From the NCBI GenBank assembly GCA_000165345.1, contig CM000430.1:448001-512000 (forward strand): a DNA stretch of 64,000 nt, given 5' to 3'. Both the position numbers and the translations under genes were made by a program. How positions within the stretch are numbered: position 1 is the first letter of the stretch; every line of letters begins with the position of its first letter. This document shows, piece after piece, positions 2 to 64,000 of the stretch. Under the pieces are notes generated by a model, which ran no database searches, was not told the DNA's origin, and saw only the letters and a program-made list of their open reading frames with translations.

Positions 2-190
2 CTAACGGATGAACAGTTTGACGAAACATCACTGGAATACCTTGCCAAATATCCTAAAGTTTTTGAATCACTTAAGACGTTGACCAAAATCAATGGGTTA
101 AATGATACGGTACCCAGCGAAATAAGTAATCATATTCAAAAGTTAAACTCGCAGATTGACAAGATTTACAATTTGCTATTAAATAGGTAA
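2..190 (+). CDS. 3' terminal fragment of a gene that begins upstream of the window (hypothetical protein)
   Basis: Frame 2 is open from position 2 to TAA at 188-190 (62 codons: LTDEQFDETSLEYLAKYPKVFESLKTLTKINGLNDTVPSEISNHIQKLNSQIDKIYNLLLNR*). No recognisable domain. It lies convergent to the Sestrin-like gene, which ends at 227. Confidence 0.3.
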   Translation, partial: LTDEQFDETSLEYLAKYPKVFESLKTLTKINGLNDTVPSEISNHIQKLNSQIDKIYNLLLNR

Positions 191-226
191 ATTAAAATAA
201 TTTTCGTGCTCAATTAGCTTGTAATC

Positions 227-2728
227 TCACTTAACACCCTTTAAAATATTTGATAATGATTGTATTGAACAGATTATAGTTACAGCTTGTTTTGCCTTGC
301 ATACGACTATTAGGTAATATATTAATTCTGTATATGAAAAAACTATTCTACACCTTTCAAAGTCTGAGCGTAGGATTCTCTGAGGAGATCGAATTGTTTT
401 TTTGAGCAAAACTTTTAATTCAAGGGGAAGGAAGCTGTTGTGAACCAATTCTGTCATTTCAAATTTGACAATTCCACATAGTTTAAATACGTAGCTCCAG
501 ATTGAAGACCTTATGGGATTAGTTGTGGGAACCTTATAAATATCACAAATTGTTGTAATGTTCTTATTGCAGTTATATAAAAGAATGTCTAATTCGTCCT
601 TAATACACTTTGAGCATTCTCCTGAGTAAATCGATAAAATAGACCATGCAGTTTCAGAATAGAATTCATATTCTAGCATTTGAATTGAAAAACTATTAAG
701 CATGCTCATGAAGTGTGCATTTTTATTTGTAAGGCATCCATTCTTCAATTCTTTTTTGTTTTTTCTAAACTCAAAGGTCTTTTCATTGTCTTTAAAACTA
801 AATTTTTTGTTGGATTCCAGCTTATTTAGAACTAAATTAGGGCTTTCTATCCCAATAAAGTTGCTTATATGTTTGAATCTTCCGGATAAAGAATTAAACT
901 GCAATTTTGGTTTAGAATTCATCACAGAGGAAAGAAGAACTCGATCAGCCTTATGCTTGTCAGAGTTTGATCTGAATAGAGGAATTTCGTCTTTGCTAAT
1001 ACCTAAAATATCGCCTTGGGGCGGAAAGTGATTAAGCAGATCCTTTATTCTAATCAAAGTTGAAACCTCTCCTTCATATTTTTGTTTTGAATGATACTCA
1101 CTCTCAAGATTTTTTTCATTATCATTAAAATTCTTAGTGTTGATTTGAGTGTATTCTTGCAGATATTCATTGGATCTAATTTGACTATCTGAAAATAAGG
1201 GCGTTCTATCTGAATTAGAGTAGTCTTTCCCCTCGTTAATTTGTTTCCTTTTTAACTTTACACTAATTGAGCTATCTAATATCCACTTTAAATCTATAAA
1301 GGAATTTATTTGAGAAAATAATCTAAGGTTGTAAATCTTGTTTAAACTGAAAATTGGAAGCTTTAAAAAACTTAATTTTGGCATTGACATATTTTTGTTT
1401 GTATTTGAAGTTGAATGATTGTTTTTTATACGATGGGTATAATTTTTTTCTTCCTTTTCTACATCTATATATTCTGATAAAATTTCTTTATAGTATGATG
1501 TTGTTAAGCTATCGGGATTTGAATTTTCATGAAAGAAATTCGATGAGATTACCTTTCGATATTCAAAGCAATCTTTCATAGTGGCTGGGTTTGGTTTGTA
1601 GCATGTATTCCCATCGCAATTCGGTCCTTCCAATGGATCTGGGCCAAGCTCCCAATGATCCATAGATGTTATTCCAAATGAACATGACAATTGCGATATT
1701 GATTGTATTGTTGTAACAATACATAAAATATGGCATAGTTCTGTTATTGTCCAAACTTGAGTATCTGAAACTTCTCCTATCAAATGGTTCATAAGTTCAT
1801 TAGAAATGTAGGCAGGTTCAAATGTAATACATTTTAGAAATTCAAAAAGCGCAAAGAATTTAACTGGTAGAGAATCTGAAGGATTTTCCAACCATTCAAT
1901 TGGACCATTGTTAAATATATACATTTGCATTTCTAATTTGATCATGTAATCGTTGTCGTATAAAGATGAACATAAAATCCCAATAAAGTGACGGTAGTGT
2001 AGTGGTAAAGCACCAAAGTTTTGATCTTCCATATTTATTTTGTAAGATTTGAGTAGCGCTTTTGCATATTCTGGAAGTATGTAAACAATTCTAAATACAG
2101 ACGGAATTCTCCCATAAAATGTATTGAAAACATCTTTCCAAAAAGTTTCGTTCTCATCTAAATAAAACTTGTTAGGAAAAAACCCAGGGGTACCAGGAAC
2201 TAAATACTCTGGAGAAATGAATCTTCCACAAGGAAGACAATGTTGATTATTTTCGCTATTTTCTGATGTAAATATTTTGATTGCTTCTCTAATTGAAATG
2301 CTACTTCCTCCCAGGGTGATGTTGAATAATAAATCCGGGTGTATATCTTTGATTTTCGTATAAAATAATGTGCTACTATACTCTGTTAATAACTTCTTTG
2401 GGTCCTCGTCTCTTCTTGAACCAATTGACCACGTTTCATTCAAACTGTTGATAATTGATTGCCAACTATTGGAAATAGACTCTCGAATATCTGAGTAGGG
2501 ATTTAGGCAAGTTGATAAGCGAAGAAGAATGCATAAAGATTGTTCAAATTTCCAGTAACTTGTTTCTCCATTTAACAATATTTGTTTCTGTATTACGTTG
2601 ACTCTATTTTCTATGTATCTTCCAATACTATTTGATTTTAGTCTTCCCCAGTTTGGAATATCCAAAAAAATACTAACAAATTCCTTATAGTTAACTAAAA
2701 GAAGAGATATTGGAAAACCATTATCCAT
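227..2728 (-). CDS. SESN: Sestrin (PA26) homolog with both Sesn-A and Sesn-C regions and a long low-complexity linker
   Basis: 833-aa ORF. The N-terminal part has HYRHFIGILCSS...NNGPIEWLEN...FEFLKCITFEPAYISNELMNHL...VWTITELCHILCIVTTIQSISQLSCSFGI, which parallels the sestrin block ...LVTHHL..GGDPAWL...INKLLAHRPWLITKEHI...[28 protein letters not shown]. The C-terminus has RSSIWSYVFKLCGIVKFE...LKVLLKKTI...YTELIYYLIVVCKAKQAVTIICSIQSL, which parallels [21 protein letters not shown]...LKVYIKTV...NLLLLEARMQAALLYALRAIT. Confidence 0.6.
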   Translation of the reverse strand: MDNGFPISLLLVNYKEFVSIFLDIPNWGRLKSNSIGRYIENRVNVIQKQILLNGETSYWKFEQSLCILLRLSTCLNPYSDIRESISNSWQSIINSLNETWSIGSRRDEDPKKLLTEYSSTLFYTKIKDIHPDLLFNITLGGSSISIREAIKIFTSENSENNQHCLPCGRFISPEYLVPGTPGFFPNKFYLDENETFWKDVFNTFYGRIPSVFRIVYILPEYAKALLKSYKINMEDQNFGALPLHYRHFIGILCSSLYDNDYMIKLEMQMYIFNNGPIEWLENPSDSLPVKFFALFEFLKCITFEPAYISNELMNHLIGEVSDTQVWTITELCHILCIVTTIQSISQLSCSFGITSMDHWELGPDPLEGPNCDGNTCYKPNPATMKDCFEYRKVISSNFFHENSNPDSLTTSYYKEILSEYIDVEKEEKNYTHRIKNNHSTSNTNKNMSMPKLSFLKLPIFSLNKIYNLRLFSQINSFIDLKWILDSSISVKLKRKQINEGKDYSNSDRTPLFSDSQIRSNEYLQEYTQINTKNFNDNEKNLESEYHSKQKYEGEVSTLIRIKDLLNHFPPQGDILGISKDEIPLFRSNSDKHKADRVLLSSVMNSKPKLQFNSLSGRFKHISNFIGIESPNLVLNKLESNKKFSFKDNEKTFEFRKNKKELKNGCLTNKNAHFMSMLNSFSIQMLEYEFYSETAWSILSIYSGECSKCIKDELDILLYNCNKNITTICDIYKVPTTNPIRSSIWSYVFKLCGIVKFEMTELVHNSFLPLELKVLLKKTIRSPQRILRSDFERCRIVFSYTELIYYLIVVCKAKQAVTIICSIQSLSNILKGVK

Positions 2729-2890
2729 AGTTTGACACTAGTTTTTGTAGATAACATATTCAATAATTATACGCTTACGAATAAATAGATAGTAGCTTAC
2801 CGCCAATAAGGCAAATTTTTTTGGTACTTAAAAACTGTTAAAACAATATTCATTAAAAGCCTAAACACTTATAATGAAACTATTAAAGAT

Positions 2891-4276
2891 TCAACAGTAA
2901 AATCTAGAATCTAATGTATTACTATGAATATTAGTACAATGAAAATTATGGAATGAGCCAATACCTCCAGTTCCATTTATATTTTTATTAGCTTCTGCAT
3001 TACTCATTAAAATATTTCCCAGTCCTGATTCAACTTGGGAGTTACATAGTGTATTGCCAGATACCAGGTTTTGATGATTTTGCCTTCCTAATTGTCTCTG
3101 AAGGAGCTGCTCATTGCATTTATCAACAATAAAGGATAAAACTACGGATGGTAGGGTCTCTAATCCATTCATGGACCCATCGGAAGCAAATTTTGCACTA
3201 ACTGGCAGTGTTGTCAGGCCACTAAATGATGATGGAAAGTATGAAATTGTAATGTAAGAAAGATTTTGCGAAATTTCTGCGCATGGATGAATATTCCTGT
3301 TTTCTCTAAATGAAATAGACTGTTGTTGTTCACGCCATTGATCTGTTTTAAACGGATAGCCTACTGAAAATCCTGTAACTTGTGCCGAGCTGTTTGCATT
3401 AGAAATTCCGGTATTAAAAGCTCTGTAATGCTCGTTTGTATTGGATATATATTGATTATCGCACTTTAACTGTGTGCTGTTTTGGATATAACCACCATTA
3501 AAAGTATCAATTTTTGGATTGTCTGAACATAGAGAAATAGATGAATCATCTTTTAACTGGTTATTAAAATGGTTAACACTGTGCTCGGAATTAGTATTAT
3601 TTACATTTTTACCTGAAATAATTTTTGACAAGTTTCTCCTTCTTGACCATCTCTGTCTATCTGCAACTCTACAGGGCTCACATGATCTCATATGGGGTGT
3701 TGCATCACGCTTGTGACATCTCCAGCAAAGTTTTGGGTCGTCTCTACGTCTCCTTACCATGTTATTTTCTTTATTAATTGATTTAAATTTGTCTGAATTT
3801 ACCTTTTCTGTCAGATTATTCTCCAAATACGAAAACAAATTAAGGTTTTGGCTGGACTCCACATATTGATTTTCAGTTTTAAATTGGTTTTGATCTTTTA
3901 ATAAACAGTCTATTATTATTGATTTTGGAGTTTCTTCTTGAGAAAATGAGATAGACTCTGAAATCTTTTTATGATTTGTATTACCTCTGTGTATTTCCAG
4001 AAATTTTGGATTGCATTCAGAAGCGTTCACTTCTTCTGAAATATTGTTCGTACTGAAGCTACATTTGGAATTACTATGATTGTAATTTACATTTCCGTTT
4101 ACGTTTACGTTAACATTTACATTTAACTTATTACTGGTATTTTGAATACTTGTATTCAAGATTTTAGGAGAGTTGCTTAAATTGCTTGATGTCTCGTTCC
4201 AATTGCAAGCCTCTTCATCAAAAGATAAGATCATATCAGAGTTGATATATATTTCAGGAATTTGTATCCCTTCCAT
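2891..4276 (-). CDS. Hypothetical low-complexity protein with a basic Cys cluster (CWRCHKRDATPHMRSCEPCR)
   Basis: 461-aa ORF with ATG at 4276-4274. It has N/S-rich low complexity including an NVNVNVNGNVNYN tract, and a C-x2-C-x11-C-x2-C motif flanked by RRRR. No confident family assignment. Confidence 0.4.
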   Translation of the reverse strand: MEGIQIPEIYINSDMILSFDEEACNWNETSSNLSNSPKILNTSIQNTSNKLNVNVNVNVNGNVNYNHSNSKCSFSTNNISEEVNASECNPKFLEIHRGNTNHKKISESISFSQEETPKSIIIDCLLKDQNQFKTENQYVESSQNLNLFSYLENNLTEKVNSDKFKSINKENNMVRRRRDDPKLCWRCHKRDATPHMRSCEPCRVADRQRWSRRRNLSKIISGKNVNNTNSEHSVNHFNNQLKDDSSISLCSDNPKIDTFNGGYIQNSTQLKCDNQYISNTNEHYRAFNTGISNANSSAQVTGFSVGYPFKTDQWREQQQSISFRENRNIHPCAEISQNLSYITISYFPSSFSGLTTLPVSAKFASDGSMNGLETLPSVVLSFIVDKCNEQLLQRQLGRQNHQNLVSGNTLCNSQVESGLGNILMSNAEANKNINGTGGIGSFHNFHCTNIHSNTLDSRFYC

Positions 4277-4606
4277 ATGACTGTCTTTATGAGACCTTAT
4301 TAATAACTTTCAATTAGTAAATATATATCAAAGTTCAAGTACATAGGATATCTAAACTCGTATTAAATCAAAACAGCTTAAATCTTCAGAAGTTCGGTTG
4401 CTTACATTTAGCATCTCTAATTATTTTGAAATATTCTGAATTTTCAAAAAAGGAATTTTTTCTCGTAAAAATTTCCCTCGTAAAAAAATTGGCTCCAAAA
4501 ATTGTCCCTCGCAACTATATTGAACTGTTCTAAAAAAAAACACATGGAAGATTACTTGAATTTAAAAAAGCAATATACTTGAGGTAAACTTCTCTAATTT
4601 ATCAAG

Positions 4607-5419
4607 ATGATGCAGAGTGAAGGTAGGTTTAACTCATCTTGGTCATTCTGTCCAAGCTAATTATCTTTAGACTGTAGTGATACTACCTTTACTACAACAA
4701 ATAATCCCTACTTAAGACTCTTAAATGCGTATATTGAAAAGACAACTGTTTACCCCAAATCCAGATGGTGTTTTTTATTCATTTTGATTTCAATTTTTGC
4801 ATTTAGAGTATATCATTGTCAAGGTATGTTACATTGTCATTAAAGTAGAATAATAACGTTTCGATTTATTATAAAATATATTTAACTTATTCTATATTTA
4901 TTTGGTATATTTTCTTAAATGCACTAATTATAGGTTTTTTTATAGTTACATATGGCCTTTCAATTTATTTATTAAATTTATTCATTGGGTTTTTGTCTCC
5001 GCAAATTGATCCAGAAGAAGAAGGTATGGTTCTTCCCATGCATGACACTCAAGAGTTCAGACCATTTGAAAGGAGGCTTCCAGAATTTAAATTTTGGATA
5101 TCTGCAACAAAAGCGACTATTGCTTCAATATTTCTAACATTCTTTGAAGTGTTTGACCTGCCTGTTTTCTGGCCGATACTTCTAATTTACTTTATTTTTT
5201 TGTTCATTTTGACAATGAGACAGCAAATTCAGGTAAGTGTATAAAATTATTATTGCATTTTAAAATAGTGACTAATATCCTTAGCATATGATAAAATACC
5301 GTTATGTTCCTTTTTCATGGGGGAAGCAAACGTATGGAGATATTACAAAGGGAAAACCAACAATAAATAAGAAAACAAGCCTGGGGGGAATAGGCTTGAC
5401 TTTGATAGGCGATAAGTAA
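4607..5419 (+). CDS. RER1: RER1 (retrieval receptor for ER membrane proteins), 4 exons
   Basis: Exons are 4607-4622, 4671-4823, 4934-5232 and 5285-5419. Introns are 4623-4670 (48 nt, GTAGGT..TTTAG), 4824-4933 (110 nt, GTATGT..TATAG) and 5233-5284 (52 nt, GTAAGT..CTTAG). The spliced protein is MMQSED...[54 protein letters not shown]...[22 protein letters not shown]...[38 protein letters not shown]. It matches the RER1 signature blocks RW....[58 protein letters not shown] and RQIKHMIKYRYIPF. Only exon 3 appears in the ORF track, at 4993-5244 with a TTG 'start'. Confidence 0.75.
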
Positions 5420-44299: not shown

Positions 44300-45303
44300 A
44301 TGGATTCTACAGCTTTAAAAGAAGAGATAATCGCACTCGAAAGTATATTTGGAGAAAGCCTTTACAACTTAGATAAGAGTGGACTCCCTTCCCCCGGTGT
44401 AAATTTTAATGATAAAGAAAGATCCCTTAAGTATTTTGTAAGTTTAAACTCGTAACTTTTTTCAATTTTTTAATATTTCTTCAGTCGGAATATCTTGATG
44501 GGATCTTGGAAATTAAAATTAGCATTCCATTTGGATACCCCTTAGAAGCGTCTTCTTTTTGTATATCTTCATGGTATTTTGACGTTCATTATTTAACAAA
44601 TTCAGAAGAATTACCGCAATCAAAAAATATCTCTCTAACTTCCAATACATTCAAGCAGTTAAAGGAACTAATTGAAACAAGAGTAGAAAGCAAAACCCCA
44701 ATTTTATTTGAGATAATTGACATTTTGATTTCCTGTAATATTGATCACGAGAAATATAAAACAAAATCAAGTATTAAAGAACAAAGAATTGAAACTAACC
44801 ACTTTGATCAATTTGATGGAGATAAAATTTTTGGTGTAACGCATGGCGAACCTATAATTGATCGAAAAAGTGTTTTCCAAGCTCATGCGTGTAAGGTAGA
44901 AACAGTTGAACAAGTTAAAAAAGTTATCAAATGGTTGCTTTCGAACCCAAAGATTGCTAAAGCAACGCACAATATTTGGTCATATAGAATATTCAAGGAG
45001 AAAAATTTCGCAGAAGTAACTGAAGGATCTTTCCCCATTGGGTACGATATCATATCACAAGATCACGACTCGGATGGCGAGAATGCAGCAGGAGGCAGAC
45101 TTCAACATCTTCTTGAAATTACTAATGCAAAGAATGTATTCGTTATGGTGTCTAGATGGTACGGGGGTATTCAACTAGGGCCAGACAGGTTTAAACATAT
45201 TAATAATGCTGCAAGGCTGATCTTAGAAAAATCGGGCTTAATAACTAGATCGGGGACTTTTTATAAACCGCAATCGAATAAAAACAAAAAGAATCAAATT
45301 TAA
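44300..45303 (+). CDS. IMPACT: IMPACT/YIH1 homolog (RWD domain plus UPF0029/YigZ domain), 2 exons
   Basis: Exon 1 is 44300-44398 (MDSTALKEEIIALESIFGESLYNLDKSGLPSPG). The intron is 44399-44484 (86 nt, GTAATT..TTCAG). Exon 2 is 44485-45303 (SEYLDGILEIKISIPFGYP... then ...RKSVFQAHACKV...IAKATHNIWSYRI...DGENAAGGRLQHLLEI...VFVMVSRWYGGIQLGPDRFKHINNAARLIL). The RWD block matches EEIEALAAIYGE...LPNEYP and the C-terminus matches the IMPACT family. An alternative donor at 44437 (GTAAGT) breaks the frame. The track shows only 44506-45303 with a TTG 'start'. Confidence 0.7.
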
Positions 45304-49861: not shown

Positions 49862-51104
49862 GTAGTTGGTTCTCTTTTACTAGGTTTAGCTTTTTAATAT
49901 CATTCACAATAATGAATTTCAACGTCTAAGTTTTTGAAAGCTAACCCAAATTGACTATTTAGAATTGAAATGAATAACTATTTGCTTTATTGCGTTCTAT
50001 TGACTATTATACGTATTATATTTGAACCGAGTGTTCGAAATGTCGAGCAAATAAAAATTTGCAACTTGCTTCCTCTCACTATAACTGTCTCAATTACCAT
50101 TTTTTTATATTTAATATTCTGTTTCTTATAGAAAGGCCCTTTAATATGAGCAATTAATTACCACTTCAAATAGAAATTTTTTTCAATTAAAATTCTGAAA
50201 AAATACAAAGAATACAAAACTTTCAAATGTGAAGTTATTTAGAAATGTTAAATGATGAAGTATTCTTAATTATTGTTTTATATCTTAGTATAGGAAATAA
50301 TTTTAGAAATAAGAATTAGTATGGAAAATATTTAATCACTTGTGAGAGTGGTTTTAGGGAATTATTAGTTCATTAAAGATTAAAAAATAATAATTGTTCA
50401 ATTTAAAAACTAGAAGTGTTTATCTAATAATTCAAAATTGGGATTATACTTTTGGTTCCAGGAATAATAAAAATTTGGTGTTGAAACGGTCATATCTTTG
50501 ATATTAATCATTTTAATATAATTTGGAGAATGCTACGAAATATTAATATAGATTTTGTCCTGCAATAAAAAGTTATTAACTCTAAGCAATATAAGCCATG
50601 AATGTCAATAATGAAAAAAAAAATTATCAAAAAAACTCGATATTTGACTCTACGAAATCAAACTGTATAAAGACTGTTCAATAAAATTCTTTTCAAATAT
50701 TTCTTTCAAGCTATTTTCTTTCAATTTAAATATTTTAGAAATACATGAGATTTGGTATTAATAAATTATAAAAAGGTATTCGGACCAAAATTATCTAAAA
50801 AAGTATTGAAAAACAACACCGTTACTTCTAACCCAATATTGTACGGCACAAATTTAGAAATGAAAGGTTTTTAATGTGTAATAAAGAATTTTATAATTTA
50901 CAAAAGTCCTAAATAAGTTTAGTTTGATTTTGAAAGAAGTATTTTTAAAAAATTAGATAAAAAATAAAGAAACTCATACCAGATATAACAAATTAACTTT
51001 TGGTTCAAGTTGAATATTATATGAATAGCATAAACCGTTTTAATGAAATGTTTAAAATTCAAATAATTAACTAAATGTTTGAACTTAAATTTTTTTTTTA
51101 TTTA

Positions 51105-52155: not shown

Positions 52156-53904
52156 ATGAAGGATATATATTTGTCATCTGTCTCAAACTCCAAAAAAAAT
52201 GTTGAATATTCAATAGGGAGATCTCAATTAAAGGTAAGACTAAATATTTAGAGTCTATTAATTATCAAAATAACCTTAACTTAATCACGTATCCTCATTC
52301 ATACTTATTAGGACGAAAAAATTGTTAAATGTTGTGAGGTTAATCAAATTCATGAAAGGTCAAATATCTACTCTAACGTCAATTATTTTAGAAATAGACA
52401 TTTACAACGATATCAAGTAATAGAATATTTATTAATTAAGCACAAATCATTTACATTCTATGTCAAAAATAAAGTGAAAACTAATGAAATATTGTTAGAT
52501 AAAATTGGAAATGAGTTCATTGGAGAAATCGGCATAGATTTGGATATTGAAAAGTCTAAATTCGTTGTTTATCCATTAAAGCATGTAATCTCTCTTAGCG
52601 AACAGGTAACCACTTTAGGGATGCTAATAAGTAACGGAGAGGGTCAAATATTAATAGAAGATCCAACTCATAGAGTTAAAATTGTTACTTCAAGCAAGAC
52701 CTTATTTGGCAAAGGTATTTATTGTTTTAACCATTTCGTTATTGCAAGAGGCAAAATGAATAAAATAACTCAGAGTTTTCATGTGGACCTGATGTTCCAT
52801 CCTCCAATCCAAAATATTGATAAAAATGTAGCAAATGAAATTCTATCCAATTTATTTTCAGGCATAAATTATACTTTATTAAAATCTGAAGATAGAGAAA
52901 AAAATATCAAAAATCAAAGCTTAAACAAAACAAAATTTTTTAGAACTACAAAATATTTGGAAGATTTAAAGATTAAAGTTCAGGTATCGAAAAATGATTA
53001 TTGGGTAATTTTTTCAGATATTATGTTAACAAGCATGAGGGTAATTGAAAATTTACGTAAAGTGTTTTCTGGTTATGAAAAAATGATTAAAGACTCAAAC
53101 ATTAATATAGGATTTATTTTATTAGGCAATTTTATTAATATCGACTTTGATAAGAATGGAGAAGATTGGATGGAAGATAAAACTTGTGTTGAAAATGATC
53201 ATAATTTTAGCAACGTAAATGAAAAAGGAAGATCTAAGAGTCTATCTATTTTTAACTCAAACTCACGTGAAAATCATTTTAAAAATTCTCAAAACAATTT
53301 CAATACAACGAGAAAAGGTTTTGAAGGATTCAAAAATGTTCTGAAAGAATTTCCAGTGTTGCTTTCAAACTGCAATTTCTTCATTATTTCTGGTCCAAAT
53401 GATATTGGGCCCGATTTACTTCCTAAACCCCCCCTTTCTAATTACTATGCATCATACTTATCTAAAGTATTTCCAGATTCGAAAATTCATTTTCTTTCGA
53501 ATCCATCTGTTATCGATGATAGTGATATTAAGATGTTTTGTTCAAGGTATTCTCTAACTAAAGAACTTAAGGAAAAGACTTTATTTTCTTACTGTGGTAC
53601 AAAAGATATGGGTTTCACAACCCAATGGAATATTGAACCTGAAACTTTAGAAAACATTATACCACAAACTGTGTTAGGCCAACAACACTTAACTCCAACA
53701 AGTTCCAATGTCATGCCAAATCTAGATTATTTCTTATTTTTACTACCAACCCCAAAAATATTAATTATTGGCGATTCCAGTCCAAGCTACTCAGTCAAAT
53801 CAATAAACCAAACTTGGATAGTGAATCCAGGGTCTTTTAATAACACATGTTCATGGGTCCAGTATAATGTTTTAACTGATTCAATTGACCATGTATGGTT
53901 GTAA
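52156..53904 (+). CDS. POLE2: DNA polymerase epsilon subunit B (POLE2/Dpb2), 2 exons
   Basis: The core ORF has the OB-fold block VVYPLKHVISLSEQVTTLGMLISNGEGQILIEDPTHRVKIV (compare human ...[28 protein letters not shown]), followed by a C-terminal calcineurin-like phosphoesterase-like region. The track starts at a GTG (52474), but the same frame is open upstream to 52312 (DEKIVKCCEVNQIHERSNIYSNVNYFRNRHLQRYQV...). An upstream exon, 52156-52233 (MKDIYLSSVSNSKKNVEYSIGRSQLK), joins in phase through intron 52234-52311 (78 nt, GTAAGA..TTATTAG). Confidence 0.55.
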
Positions 53905-57184: not shown

Positions 57185-57417
57185 GATATCTCGGTTACAT
57201 AATAGCCATAGTTTATCAATTTATAGAATATTTAGCAAATATTGTTAATAGGAAACATTTATTCATATATCTAATTTAACCGCCCTAATCAATTTATTTA
57301 AAATAATATTCTAATTTCAAGCAAGAAACTCAATTCCACACCTTTTACATAGTAATGAGGGAAAATTGTGTGTTTTAAGGAAAGAATGCAGGCTCAAGCT
57401 ATTACAAATAGATAGTC

Positions 57418-58313
57418 ATGAAAGTTAAATCAACCTTTATTTTGCTAATTTTTACTCTTAATTATCTCACATCTTATTGTTCATTAAGGAATACTAATGG
57501 TGTAAGTACATAAATAAAAAAATTATTAATTATTTGTAACATTTTATTAGAATGGAAACAAATTAGTTGAAATACTTGAACCAAAGGAAATGAACAACGT
57601 AAGAGATAATTTTCAAAAGTCGAATAATAATTTTGAGCTTTTAGGTAACTTCTGCATTGAGAATCTTTCCTTTTGTTTACTATGGATATATTTCAAGGCT
57701 CAGTTTAAGTAATTTAGATAGCAATATAGTGGAAAGAAGGCTAGAAGAATTATATCCTTTTTTGCAGAAAATAGCCTGCACTGCTTTGAATTGTTTAAGT
57801 ATGTTTAACTAAATTTACACAAATAGTAACACTCAATCTCACAGTGATCTTTAATCCTATTCCCGGCTCAGCTATGACAGTTTCCGCTCTTTCATGTAAG
57901 TGGAATAAATAAAGAAAATAATTTATAATTGCTTTAGGGATTCTTTCATTTTCAACATTGAGCAATAGCGTATTACCTTACTTGTTACAATACGCAACGG
58001 GTCTTCCTCAAGCACTTTACTTTTCTTTGCAAATTTCCGAATTTCAGATAATTACTTCACCTGTCAGCCTAGTTAAAGAGGGAGATGTAAGTCGGAACAC
58101 GTCTTTTTTTTTTCGAATCTAGAACAGAGCTAATAATTGATGCAGATATTTGGAAAACTAATTTCCCATAGGGATGGAGATAATGCTATACATGATCTAC
58201 TAGTTTCTCCATGTGATGGCGTTTTGCAATATGTTTGGCCAAATGTTTCAACACCTACTGTTGCTTTCATGCTAATTGCAAGGATTCAATGTAATTTGAA
58301 AATACAAGGATAG
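57418..58313 (+). CDS. Multi-exon gene encoding a signal-peptide/signal-anchor protein (tentative 6-exon model; not visible in the ORF track)
   Basis: Proposed exons: 57418-57501 (MKVKSTFILLIFTLNYLTSYCSLRNTNG), 57551-57598, 57645-57798, 57845-57895, 57938-58086 and 58146-58313 (ending ...VAFMLIARIQCNLKIQG*, TAG at 58311). Introns are 57502-57550 (GTAAGT), 57599-57644 (GTAAGA), 57799-57844 (GTATGT), 57896-57937 (GTAAGT) and 58087-58145 (GTAAGT). All are 42-59 nt and phase-consistent. There is a weak resemblance to the signal peptidase complex subunit SPCS3 C-terminus (SALSWILSFSTLSNSVLPYLL versus LTLSWNVVPNAGILPLV), which is speculative. Confidence 0.3.
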
Positions 58314-58526
58314 TGAGGCAGATTGAAATATCTTAATACTAAATAAATTATAATAGTTTGATAATTATCAAACACGCTTTTTCTAAATTGTTCATATTAC
58401 AAGAAAATGACGTCATCATATTTGATTATTAGATCAAAAGGCGGCTTGAATGCACGCAAAATCCCCACTGAGCGTTTTGATGTTTTCTAAATCAAATTTG
58501 TAGAAATTGAGAGAATTTATGTAAAT

Positions 58527-59555: not shown

Positions 59556-59908
59556 GTCCTATCATACATATACACCGCTATTAACTAAAACTGCACGAGG
59601 AAAGTATACTTTATTACATAAATCAACAGTTATAAAAAAAATAAAATCGATTTAGATCTGATTTGAAAATAACTGCCGACAAGTTAAAAACAGGCTTTTA
59701 AGACCTAAAGGATTTAAGACTAAATGAGACATTTAAATGGCAAGATATTTAGGTAATATGATAGAGAAATACACTGCATTTATTCTGTTCTATAGTAAGA
59801 TTCTGGTATTATTAGATTTAAATCTTGCACCACGTCTTGTCTAAGAGATACCTCTATTTTTTTTTTGTACACAAAATATTAAGAGAATTATTTCTTGATT
59901 TATTCACA

Positions 59909-60412
59909 ATGTTTAAACTATTTAGTTGTTTGTGCTGTCAAAATGTTGACTTGAATGAAGAAAGGTAAGTCATATTTGACAGTTTAGATGAATTTATATC
60001 TTTTTTTACAGAATGGACACAAGATTATTCACAAGGTTTCCTTCAACGTATCATCTTAGGACTCTTTTTGACGAATATGTAAGTTTTCCTATTCAACATT
60101 ATATAAAGTAAGTCTAATTATTGGTAGAGCTTAAATGGATCAGATATTTCTGAAGGAAGCGAAGTTGGAGATAATCATGAGTGTCAAAATGAAGATCGTC
60201 TAGAAATGATTGTTGAAGAAGATAATGAATTTTTAGAAGATGGACTTTATGATAGAAATTCTCTAAATGCGAGTAGGAAGGTCACTGAAAAAAGTGAAGT
60301 TGATGTAATGAACATAAACAGCAATAGAAGTTCATTGAACACAAACTCTGGATCTAATACGAATCGATCAAAGCAATCGAAGAGGAATAAAAGGAGGAGC
60401 TACAGGAAGTGA
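59909..60412 (+). CDS. Small protein with an N-terminal Cys cluster (putative S-palmitoylation motif), 3 exons
   Basis: Exons are 59909-59964 (MFKLFSCLCCQNVDLNEE plus 2 nt), 60012-60078 (RMDTRLFTRFPSTYHLRTLFDEY) and 60128-60412 (SLNGSDISEG...KRNKRRSYRK*). Introns are 59965-60011 (47 nt, GTAAGT..TTACAG) and 60079-60127 (49 nt, GTAAGT..TGGTAG). The track shows only 60206-60412. Confidence 0.45.
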
Positions 60413-60571
60413 ATATCGCTTATCCAAGAGTATGCTGAAGATTTGCAATAAATAAGCGGTTGGCTAATTGCAATGTAAATTTCTTATTATACAGATTAAC
60501 GCGCTTAGAAAGCTGATAAATGTTGTAAATAGTTAGGTTTGTAAAAATAACTAAAAAATATTGACACTGCA

Positions 60572-60877
60572 ATGAACTCAATAAAGTTATTAGTAGAGTC
60601 ATTCATAAGTTCAGGAGATATCTGTGTTATATCGAAGAGTTATTGCCCATACTGCATAAAAGCAATCAATAGCTTGAAAAGCGCTGGATATTCACCTTTG
60701 GTTATGCAAATCGACGGTAGAGTAGATACTAAAGAAATTCAAGATTACTGTAGGGAGCTAACTGGAAGTGGAACTGTCCCAAGAGTATTTGTTAAGGGAA
60801 GGTTTATAGGAGGATGTGATGATACCCTGAAGCTGTTAGAAGACGGCTCATTGAGTAGTTTTGTTGAAACGATCTAG
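60572..60877 (+). CDS. GRX: Glutaredoxin (dithiol CPYC class)
   Basis: 101 aa. The active site is VISKSYCPYCIKA, followed by the glutathione-binding signature TVPRVFVKGRFIGGCDD. Confidence 0.8.
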   Translation: MNSIKLLVESFISSGDICVISKSYCPYCIKAINSLKSAGYSPLVMQIDGRVDTKEIQDYCRELTGSGTVPRVFVKGRFIGGCDDTLKLLEDGSLSSFVETI

Positions 60878-61270
60878 GCACCTTAATTTGTTTTTTTCTT
60901 CATACTTGTAACAGTATTTTTGCTCAATTGCGAATTGTGCGTTGTATAGCAAAAATGTCTAATTAATACAAATTTAACTTTTGTTTATTTCTATCCATCC
61001 CACTACCAAGATATTTGCAAGATCAAGGAGCCGCGCATTCACTGTGGGGCATGCAATTCGGATATGCTTAATGGCGAATAATTTGAGGATTTCTTTAAGA
61101 CGTATATATTCTTTATTTTTATTACATTGTAAAGGGTGTTATATTTCTCTAAAAACGCACATTAATTACATGCACATTACAAATTAAGTCTGCGAAGCTT
61201 TAATTTTTTGCGATTAAGAAGATCTCCAATTGTGGTCTAACTACAGTAATAAATTTTGCAGATTTAACGA

Positions 61271-64000
61271 ATGAGAAAAATATATTGCAGTTTTATTTTA
61301 ATTCTTTGGATACTACTGCTAACACAGCTAATATCAGAATGTACTTCTTCTAGTTTGGATACTAAATCTGAGGATTTAAAAGAAGTGAACGAAGTTGATG
61401 TCGTACAAGAAGGTAGCAATGCACCGGTTCCTACACATTTAATTAGAGAATATGGTTATTATATATTAAATGATAATGGCTTCAGCCAAAATTCACTAAT
61501 TTGCAAGTTTGAGGATGAAAATCTACAACTTAAATACATAAATTTCGCATCCACATTGGCAAATGTCACTTCAAAGTTGTTATTGAATATAAAGTTGACA
61601 AATTCCGTTCAATATAATATTTACAACAAAATATTTAGTAGCATTTTGCATCTAGATGGTAAAGGCTCGGGATTTCATTATTTCCTAGGATTAAAAGATA
61701 TGTATGAGCAATTGAAATATATCAAATACAAAGAGTTTACATTTAACGAAAAAGAATTAGAATCTGAAATTAAGGGTTCTATGGAAGAATTAGACAAAAT
61801 AATAAATAGTTTATCAGAAAAAATGGATCAAACAAAAAGTGAATTCTGCATGAGCTTATATCTTTTTAGATTTAAAGGTCTAAAGCAAATCATGTTGGCT
61901 ATTCGCGGATTGCTATCACTTATTCTGACAGGAGAAACTTCTGAAATAAATGCCCATTTAGATACTCAGTTTAACAAAGTATTTGATTTGATTACCCTAA
62001 ATATAGAGTATTTAGGCATGTACAAGTCAACTTTACTTGAGATTAATACAAAACTGGAGGAAACGTTATTAGGATGTTTAGATGCAATTGGGAATTTAAA
62101 TATTCCATTATTTGGGGGGAATGGCCAAGATAGTCAACTTTTAGATATTATTTCAAAGTCTTTCAGAATGTCTTTTGGTAATGATAGCTACAAGAGATCT
62201 GCAAGTGATTTTGGATCTGCATTGGATGAACTTGCGGAAAATAAAGTATTTTATCGAATGAATTGCGAATTAAAAGTTTCTAAATTAAAAGAATTCGTAA
62301 AGTCTCAGAAAATTAATGTGGATAACAGCTTCAATATTTCAAAAAAAATTTTACAGGATTTAAGAAACATTCCAATTAATCTTGAAATTGAAATGCTGAG
62401 ATATACAATCTTCAAAGAATATTCAAATAGTAATATGCAAGGTGTTGCATTTGATAAAATAGCTAGTCAAATAAATAATGAATATTTACGTGGACTGATT
62501 ATTTTTATTTCCGAGTTTCAGGTTCAATTGCAAGAAAGATGCTTAAGTTTAATGCAAATACTTAATTTTACAGAATTAAAAGGTTCTTTTCTATGGTGGA
62601 GTAGTTATTTTGATTCCGCCATAAATGAAAATATATTAAAAGAGGATAAATTGACGGAATTATCAAGAATACTGGATATTGCAATTTCATCATTCATTAA
62701 AGTTGATTCTTTTGAAAGTAAAATAGTTAATCTTTTGTCTTTGGAGCCTTTTTCAAAGTTAATTAGAGATTATAAAATAGATGACAAAAATTTCAACGAA
62801 CTTATTAATAAAGTTCAAAAGCATTCAAAATTAATTATGTTAACTAACTCTTATTATTCGAATTATGGCACATTTACGAGTAATGGATATTTAGATACAG
62901 AAAATTCAAAGCCTTTACAAGATTTATTTCAAAATAATAACATGCAACAATTTGAGGATTTATGTAAGATTTTAAGGTCCAATTCTAATCAATTATTTAA
63001 AAATGAACGAATTCGTTCAGCTTTCAATAACGTTGACAGAACTGTTTATTTGGAAGTTCAAAAATATAGGAGAGAATTAGAAAGATTTCGGGCGAATATG
63101 AGTTCTACAAACATTTTATTCACTACGAGTATTGGGTATAACGATCAATACAACTTAATTTTTGAATTAATTGAAAAATTGTTAGTAGGAGAAAGAAATT
63201 TTGAGGCATATATCTCTAACTATTTAGAAATGAGAAATTGTATTGGTAATCTGAATTCTGATTATTCTCAATTAACTGGTATAGCTCATCCAGCTTTAAG
63301 AGAAGACTCAGAGGAAAGAATATTCTTTGATCCAATGAGAAATAGGCTTTTGAGATTCAGAGATGAACTTATGGATAAATTCAATAGTTTATTTGATGAA
63401 CGAATTATTAGTTCTATTGAATCAGTTTTTGATACGTACTTAAACGCTCAAATTTATCTTTCTGGTTCTTTATCTCAAATGATAGGATCTAAGGAAAGCC
63501 CAGAAATGCCTTTTAATAAATATGACTTCAATCTACTATATGGCTCAATTGTGAGAGCTGAAAATTTGTTATTTAAATCTAAAGGTATAAAGCCATCAAT
63601 TTTTCCTGAAAAAAAATTGAAGGAGAGAGTTTCTTTTCTTTATTATATTTATAGATCTTATGTACAACAGATTTCTAATTTAAAAAATTATTTGACTGAA
63701 TGGAATAATAATATGATTAAAGAAAGCACCTTATCTAAAATTAATCCATTAAAATTTATGAATCTTTTAAATTTTAGCTTTGATTCAATTAAAAAACAAT
63801 TAATTCAAATATTTGAACATGGCTCTCTAAATAAAAACATTGAAAGAGAAGTTTTTGGGGAAATTGAAACTTTATTCCTTTGGATAAAGTCTCAGGAATT
63901 TGAAAAGCTTCTAGACAAACTAGATATAATATATAAATCAGAAGGTTTAATTGATTTGATTATGAATGGCAATTCTATTTCCCTATCGCAATCATTTATC
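61271..64000 (+). CDS. Large secreted protein, 5' partial (runs off the window end; at least 910 aa)
   Basis: ATG is at 61271. A signal peptide (MRKIYCSFILILWILLLTQLISEC) is followed by an uninterrupted open frame to position 64000 with no stop. It is absent from the ORF track, presumably because no stop lies within the window. Composition is helical and L/N/K/E-rich, with no recognisable catalytic motif. Confidence 0.6.
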   Translation, partial: MRKIYCSFILILWILLLTQLISECTSSSLDTKSEDLKEVNEVDVVQEGSNAPVPTHLIREYGYYILNDNGFSQNSLICKFEDENLQLKYINFASTLANVTSKLLLNIKLTNSVQYNIYNKIFSSILHLDGKGSGFHYFLGLKDMYEQLKYIKYKEFTFNEKELESEIKGSMEELDKIINSLSEKMDQTKSEFCMSLYLFRFKGLKQIMLAIRGLLSLILTGETSEINAHLDTQFNKVFDLITLNIEYLGMYKSTLLEINTKLEETLLGCLDAIGNLNIPLFGGNGQDSQLLDIISKSFRMSFGNDSYKRSASDFGSALDELAENKVFYRMNCELKVSKLKEFVKSQKINVDNSFNISKKILQDLRNIPINLEIEMLRYTIFKEYSNSNMQGVAFDKIASQINNEYLRGLIIFISEFQVQLQERCLSLMQILNFTELKGSFLWWSSYFDSAINENILKEDKLTELSRILDIAISSFIKVDSFESKIVNLLSLEPFSKLIRDYKIDDKNFNELINKVQKHSKLIMLTNSYYSNYGTFTSNGYLDTENSKPLQDLFQNNNMQQFEDLCKILRSNSNQLFKNERIRSAFNNVDRTVYLEVQKYRRELERFRANMSSTNILFTTSIGYNDQYNLIFELIEKLLVGERNFEAYISNYLEMRNCIGNLNSDYSQLTGIAHPALREDSEERIFFDPMRNRLLRFRDELMDKFNSLFDERIISSIESVFDTYLNAQIYLSGSLSQMIGSKESPEMPFNKYDFNLLYGSIVRAENLLFKSKGIKPSIFPEKKLKERVSFLYYIYRSYVQQISNLKNYLTEWNNNMIKESTLSKINPLKFMNLLNFSFDSIKKQLIQIFEHGSLNKNIEREVFGEIETLFLWIKSQEFEKLLDKLDIIYKSEGLIDLIMNGNSISLSQSFI

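Follow-up and report, generated by a model that had tools for sequence, protein, structure and literature searches.

Exon and intron structure of RER1

The plus strand of the window (the whole 64-kb stretch of DNA analysed) carries at 4607–5419 what is, with little doubt, the single-copy Cryptosporidium parvum orthologue of RER1, a gene of four exons and three GT-AG introns whose 200-residue product is predicted by homology to be a retrieval receptor. The exons lie at 4607–4622, 4671–4823, 4934–5232 and 5285–5419 and span 813 nt. When spliced, they give a coding sequence of 603 nt (200 aa) that has no internal stop and closes with the TAA at 5417–5419, whereas the unspliced reading from the ATG at 4607 yields a peptide of 17 aa. 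The earlier note had reconstructed a four-exon RER1 with introns of 48, 110 and 52 nt, the donors GTAGGT, GTATGT and GTAAGT and phase-consistent junctions. All of these signals are present in the sequence, and the junctions, with phases of 1, 1 and 0, join the exons into one 603-nt open reading frame.

Exon 1 (4607–4622, +) comprises only 16 nt, ATG ATG CAG AGT GAA G, which encode MMQSE and the first base of codon 6. Intron 1 (4623–4670, 48 nt, phase 1) extends from the GTAGGT donor to an acceptor ending in CTTTAG and includes a branch-like CTAAT at 4657–4661, the A of which is placed 10 nt before the 3′ end. Exon 2 (4671–4823, +, 153 nt) contributes residues 6–56 and the first base of codon 57, and encodes the cytosolic N-terminal region together with the first hydrophobic helix (about residues 36–56). 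Intron 2 (4824–4933, 110 nt, phase 1, 18% G+C) has the donor GTATGT and an acceptor ending in TTATAG; its branch-like CTAAT is located at 4924–4928, with the A 6 nt before the 3′ end. Exon 3 (4934–5232, +, 299 nt) encodes residues 57–157, which include hydrophobic helices 2–4 and a lumenal loop with a conserved block. An alternative in-frame AG acceptor for intron 2 is found at 4944–4945 (+), and its use would shift the start of exon 3 to 4946 with the loss of GFFI (residues 57–60). Intron 3 (5233–5284, 52 nt, phase 0) runs from the GTAAGT donor to an acceptor ending in CCTTAG, with a branch-like CTAAT at 5272–5276 whose A lies 9 nt before the 3′ end. Exon 4 (5285–5419, +, 135 nt) encodes residues 158–200, which make up the whole cytosolic tail, and the TAA stop.

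Read-through of the introns is interrupted by stop codons. Introns 2 and 3 contain stops in all three frames, the sole stop in frame 2 of intron 3 being the final TAG of the intron. Intron 1 has stops in frames 0 and 1 (that in frame 0 is terminal), and the frame in which exon 1 would read through (frame 2) also stops inside the intron.

Six-frame translation reveals little of this gene. The earlier note had stated that only an 83-aa fragment with a TTG start appears in the track of open reading frames, and at the default 60-aa cut-off this ORF (4993–5244) is indeed the sole one visible across 4607–5419. Lowering the cut-off to 20 aa additionally exposes the last exon as a 43-aa ORF with an ATG start (5288–5419). 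An antisense protein gene was rejected, as the longest ORF on the minus strand of 4607–5419 in the 20-aa listing is 47 aa. A scan of the whole 64-kb window against Rfam returned zero matches at the gathering threshold, so no RNA gene accounts for the ORF-poor stretch. JGI metagenome contigs were also scanned for spliced transcripts with a junction-2 pattern (either acceptor) and a degenerate junction-3 pattern, and each gave 0 matches.

Identity of the encoded protein

Comparison of the 200-aa product with the Pfam Rer1 family (PF03248) gave an E-value of 2.9e-66 and a score of 222.8 bits against a cut-off of 23.9, a match at 4607–5419 that is far beyond chance. The match is continuous, with residues 21–173 aligned to profile positions 8–166 of 167, which shows membership of the family and bears out the proposal that the splice product is a full-length Rer1 protein. 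The conserved blocks quoted in the earlier note are present verbatim and sit in the proposed exons, except that the first reads RW...FRVYHCQG rather than 'IRVY'; the last of them crosses junction 3.

Against 5.8 billion proteins, the product gave 2264 matches at E ≤ 0.001, and the best 120 of the 2264 all carry the Rer1 Pfam domain. The best match was WRK31013.1, annotated as "Retrieval of early ER protein Rer1 [Cryptosporidium parvum]", a protein of 200 aa with 100% identity over 100% of its length. Its gene is located on the 992-kb sequence CP141119.1 (GCA_035232765.1) and spans 813 nt, equivalent to 4607–5419, and the CP141119.1 locus shows 0 mismatches to the window over 6813 nt. Threading WRK31013.1 onto the DNA reproduced the exon coordinates of all four exons exactly. 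The deposited gene and the one described here are therefore the same in protein (200/200 residues), exon coordinates and DNA, with no difference between them, and the gene model had already been deposited in GenBank. The same 200-aa model, with one residue different, is represented by OLQ16133.1, PPA63477.1 and TRY53066.1 (C. hominis and C. tyzzeri). The reconstruction made from the bare sequence is correct and adds nothing new to the gene models already on record.

Deposited models of the locus

The public annotations of this locus disagree. At least five protein models (200, 196, 193, 165 and 113 aa) have been deposited for identical or near-identical RER1 DNA. WRK31013.1 represents the 200-aa model. 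The 196-aa model, deposited for C. hominis UdeA01 (CUV04581.1) and for C. parvum (WKS76521.1), uses the intron 2 acceptor 12 nt downstream and lacks GFFI. A partial model of 193 aa from IOWA-ATCC (QOY43008.1, on CP044421.1) is equivalent to positions 4607–5395 of the window; it has all three junctions described above and keeps GFFI, but it ends 24 nt short of the in-frame TAA at 5417–5419 despite DNA identical to that of the window. The authors of the IOWA-ATCC annotation described its introns as 100% supported by RNA-seq (PMC8744675). In the original Iowa II annotation of 2004, the partial 165-aa model XP_001388219.1 lacks exons 1 and 2, takes its N-terminus from a translation of intron 2 (frame 1 of 4824–4933) and likewise stops after GGIG. 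This model bears out the suggestion in the earlier note that ORF-based annotation misses the gene. The shortest model, PPS95110.1 (113 aa), starts at Met88. The junction between exons 3 and 4 is common to all the deposited models other than WRK31013.1 (165, 193, 196 and 113 aa).

The reconstruction has little biological weight: RER1 does housekeeping work in the early secretory pathway, and its exact model is already in GenBank. Its practical value lies in curation. On the comparative evidence given below, it is the 200-aa model that should be propagated, in place of the 196-, 193-, 165- and 113-aa versions.

Conservation among Cryptosporidium species

To the C. parvum gene we compared the annotated orthologues of five further species or genotypes (C. 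andersoni, C. bovis, C. ryanae, C. canis and chipmunk genotype I). The flanking genes are the same at all five loci: upstream lies a minus-strand gene of 441–469 aa, and downstream a gene of the DnaJ/zuotin type. All five orthologues consist of four exons and share the three intron positions and phases with C. parvum, which shows that the gene structure is conserved across the genus. The annotated acceptor of intron 2, however, lies 12 nt downstream in C. bovis and chipmunk genotype I and 54 nt downstream in C. canis.

Exon and intron sequences have diverged in different ways. Identity to C. parvum ranges from 0.67 to 0.94 in the exons across the five species, whereas in the introns of the four more distant species it is 0.48–0.63, against ~0.52 for shuffled sequence; the introns of chipmunk genotype I are 0.71–0.77 identical to those of C. 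parvum (0.77 for intron 1). Intron lengths vary among the six species over 45–71, 110–132 and 51–75 nt, by differences that are not multiples of 3. Substitutions in exon 3, counted at codon positions 1/2/3, amount to 4/2/24, 10/2/42, 13/3/50, 13/3/46 and 16/3/47 in the five comparisons (the last being C. andersoni). Conserved exons with changes concentrated at third positions, together with diverged introns, form the pattern of translated exons between true introns.

Two observations concern individual annotations around these loci. The annotated Rer1 of C. canis (180 aa; JAPCXB010000008.1) lacks 18 conserved residues, and an upstream TTTTCAG acceptor (1822/1823 of the fetched locus, compared with the annotated 1876/1877) restores these 18 residues to give a protein of 198 aa. 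The upstream neighbour in the C. parvum window (2891–4276, −) lies in divergent orientation and encodes an Asn/Ser-rich protein of 461 aa that has no Pfam match, and its position is kept in the six Cryptosporidium species. Beyond it lies a gene for an 833-aa protein with a PA26 (sestrin-like) domain (227–2728, −).

Choice of the intron 2 acceptor

The two candidate acceptors of intron 2 are arranged in tandem, with TATAG followed by GTTTTTTTATAG and then by TTACA. The same gene could be read with the AG at 4944–4945 as the main acceptor, so that exon 3 starts from 4946 and the protein has 196 aa without GFFI, or, in a weaker form of this reading, with both tandem acceptors in use. Its attractions are that 196-aa models have been deposited for C. 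hominis UdeA01 and C. parvum, that the +12 acceptor is also annotated in C. bovis and the chipmunk genotype, and that the downstream AG is preceded by a T-rich run (GTTTTTTTATAG). The branch-like CTAAT of intron 2 is also 18 nt from the downstream AG but only 6 nt from the upstream AG, compared with distances of 10 and 9 nt in introns 1 and 3. In neither C. canis nor C. andersoni, however, do the introns contain CTAAT-like motifs, and the branch-site distance was therefore treated as weak evidence.

Comparison among species points to the upstream acceptor. The upstream AG is found in all six Cryptosporidium species, whereas the downstream AG is missing in C. canis, which has GG TTT TTT ATT GTT at this place, and in C. 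andersoni, which has GT TTT TAT ATT GTA. The 12 nt that separate the two AGs differ among the species solely at third positions or by an F-to-Y change, as in coding sequence. At the protein level, GF[FY][IV] occurs in 10 of the 12 non-Cryptosporidium Rer1 proteins in a 19-sequence alignment, several of them transcript-derived; the exceptions are AFYI in Chromera and GYYI in one transcript-derived protein. Gly57 is near-invariant across 74 sequences. GFFI is also retained in QOY43008.1, which belongs to the IOWA-ATCC annotation described as RNA-seq-supported (PMC8744675). Because the upstream AG is conserved, the 12 nt behave like coding sequence and GF[FY][IV] is conserved, we favour 4933/4934 as the main intron 2 acceptor and consider its replacement by the downstream AG improbable. 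With the 4933/4934 boundary, the orthologues of C. canis, C. bovis and the chipmunk genotype should likewise use the upstream acceptor. If both acceptors were used, a minor 196-aa isoform would lack GFFI, where membrane helix 2 begins.

Integrity of the 5′ end

Exon 1 consists of 16 nt only and cannot be scored on its own, and a partial model of 165 aa and one of 113 aa are on deposit. One could accordingly propose that exon 1 is not real and that the gene is truncated, starts elsewhere (for example at Met88, as in the 113-aa PPS95110.1) or is a decaying pseudogene. The reading frame of exon 2, however, offers no alternative start, as a TAA lies four codons upstream of 4670 with no in-frame ATG between them. 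Of the five other species, three have an exon 1 with 0.94 identity to that of C. parvum and two have one with 0.69–0.79, whereas for intron 1 the four more distant species show an identity of 0.49–0.58. The annotated first exon ends in GTGAAG, followed by GT, in all six species, and the N-terminal MM.SE recurs in several other alveolate Rer1 proteins, some of which are transcript-derived. A pseudogene or truncated gene was rejected, and we give this proposal next to no credence, because an intact reading frame of 597–612 nt with signatures of purifying selection, including third-position-biased substitutions, is present in all six Cryptosporidium species.

Further features of the window

Several other stretches of the window may hold spliced genes. 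A 265-aa ORF at 44506–45303 (+) contains a full UPF0029 (IMPACT-type) domain at residues 120–239 (E = 1.8e-27). Its first in-frame ATG is codon 214, inside the UPF0029 domain, so translation probably begins on an exon further upstream and this is another likely spliced gene. A 476-aa ORF at 52474–53904 (+) matches DNA polymerase alpha/epsilon subunit B (PF04042, E = 3.7e-19); since its first in-frame ATG is codon 50, the 5′ end may be on a separate exon. Three intervals of the otherwise gene-dense window, 59556–64000, 49862–51104 and 57185–58526, have no ORF of 120 aa or longer. The first includes a 101-aa glutaredoxin ORF at 60572–60877 (PF00462, E = 5e-13), and the other two may hold further multi-exon genes.

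Intron history

The RNA-seq-based reannotation of C. parvum placed introns in about 10.8% of genes and described intron-containing genes with 2–10 exons (mean 2.6) and a mean intron of 99 nt with 22% G+C (PMC4637869). With four exons in 603 nt, RER1 is at the intron-rich end for this genome, yet it is unremarkable. The case confirms that six-frame ORF tracks show too little of the intron-containing genes of C. parvum, which make up roughly 11% of the total (PMC4637869).

The RER1 genes of Toxoplasma gondii and Eimeria tenella are orthologous to that of Cryptosporidium (51–64% protein identity) and have the same conserved blocks, but their coding sequences (669 and 684 nt, respectively) are uninterrupted, in contrast to the three introns of the Cryptosporidium gene. 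Introns are present in RER1 of Vitrella and Physcomitrium, at positions unlike those of the three Cryptosporidium introns. Given the uninterrupted coccidian genes and the other positions in Vitrella and Physcomitrium, the three introns look lineage-specific among the taxa sampled, in which four comparators are too few to separate gain from differential loss. All three are shared by the gastric C. andersoni and the intestinal Cryptosporidium species. If they are lineage-specific, they would reflect either a gain of introns or their selective retention, in a genome that is known otherwise for losing them. Two modest readings, which we regard as rather unlikely, are that the tandem acceptors at 4933 and 4945 are both used in C. 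parvum and that the three introns are confined to the Cryptosporidium lineage. As a separate observation, the closest non-Cryptosporidium Rer1 among the listed matches (61% identity) is encoded by an uninterrupted 271-aa ORF at 1823–2638 of a 10-kb Logan contig (SRR33398671_635).

Predicted architecture and function of Cryptosporidium Rer1

Kyte-Doolittle analysis of the 200-aa protein identified four hydrophobic stretches at about residues 36–56, 57–77, 118–135 and 136–155. An AlphaFold2 model built from 74 sequences (mean pLDDT 73.6) places helices at residues 34–55, 59–77, 106–124 and 136–160, arranged as two hairpins. In blocks of ten residues, the mean pLDDT is 83–97 over residues 31–80, 87–96 over residues 111–160 and 74 over residues 101–110, where the 106–124 helix starts. 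The site of intron 2 corresponds exactly to the gap between helices 1 and 2. No relative with a solved structure turned up in the PDB, either by sequence or in a Foldseek comparison of folds with the AlphaFold2 model (best E = 5.6). The protein would thus be a 200-aa membrane protein with four hydrophobic helices in two hairpins, followed by a tail that includes YVPF (residues 163–166) and GKQTY (residues 169–173). Tyr163, Pro165, Gly169, Lys170 and Tyr173 are invariant in the 74-sequence alignment.

Rer1p of Saccharomyces cerevisiae belongs to the same Pfam family and has four transmembrane domains, and its cytosolic C-terminal tail is the best-conserved part. [quoted passage not shown] Two motifs in this tail, YIPL (residues 173–176) and GKKKY (residues 179–183), are needed for coatomer binding, Golgi localisation and function (PMC2198819). 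A search of the literature for experimental work on Cryptosporidium Rer1 found no such paper. As a homologue of yeast and mammalian Rer1, the Cryptosporidium protein most likely shuttles between the ER and the cis-Golgi. It would bind polar or exposed transmembrane segments of ER-resident proteins that have escaped or of unassembled membrane proteins, and through its cytosolic tail, the product of exon 4, it would attach to COPI coatomer and so carry this cargo back to the ER. We infer by homology with the yeast receptor that Cryptosporidium Rer1 is a COPI-dependent Golgi-to-ER retrieval receptor, and its localisation, cargo binding and dependence on COPI are predicted on the same basis.

The two proteins also differ in the tail. 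YVPF and GKQTY in Cryptosporidium can be read as the counterparts of YIPL and GKKKY in yeast (yeast motifs as quoted in PMC2198819). The second Lys of the dilysine-like yeast motif is replaced by Gln in Cryptosporidium, and coatomer binding may therefore differ between the two. Past the GK...Y motif, the tail continues for 27 residues in Cryptosporidium, compared with 5 (SHSSN) in yeast.
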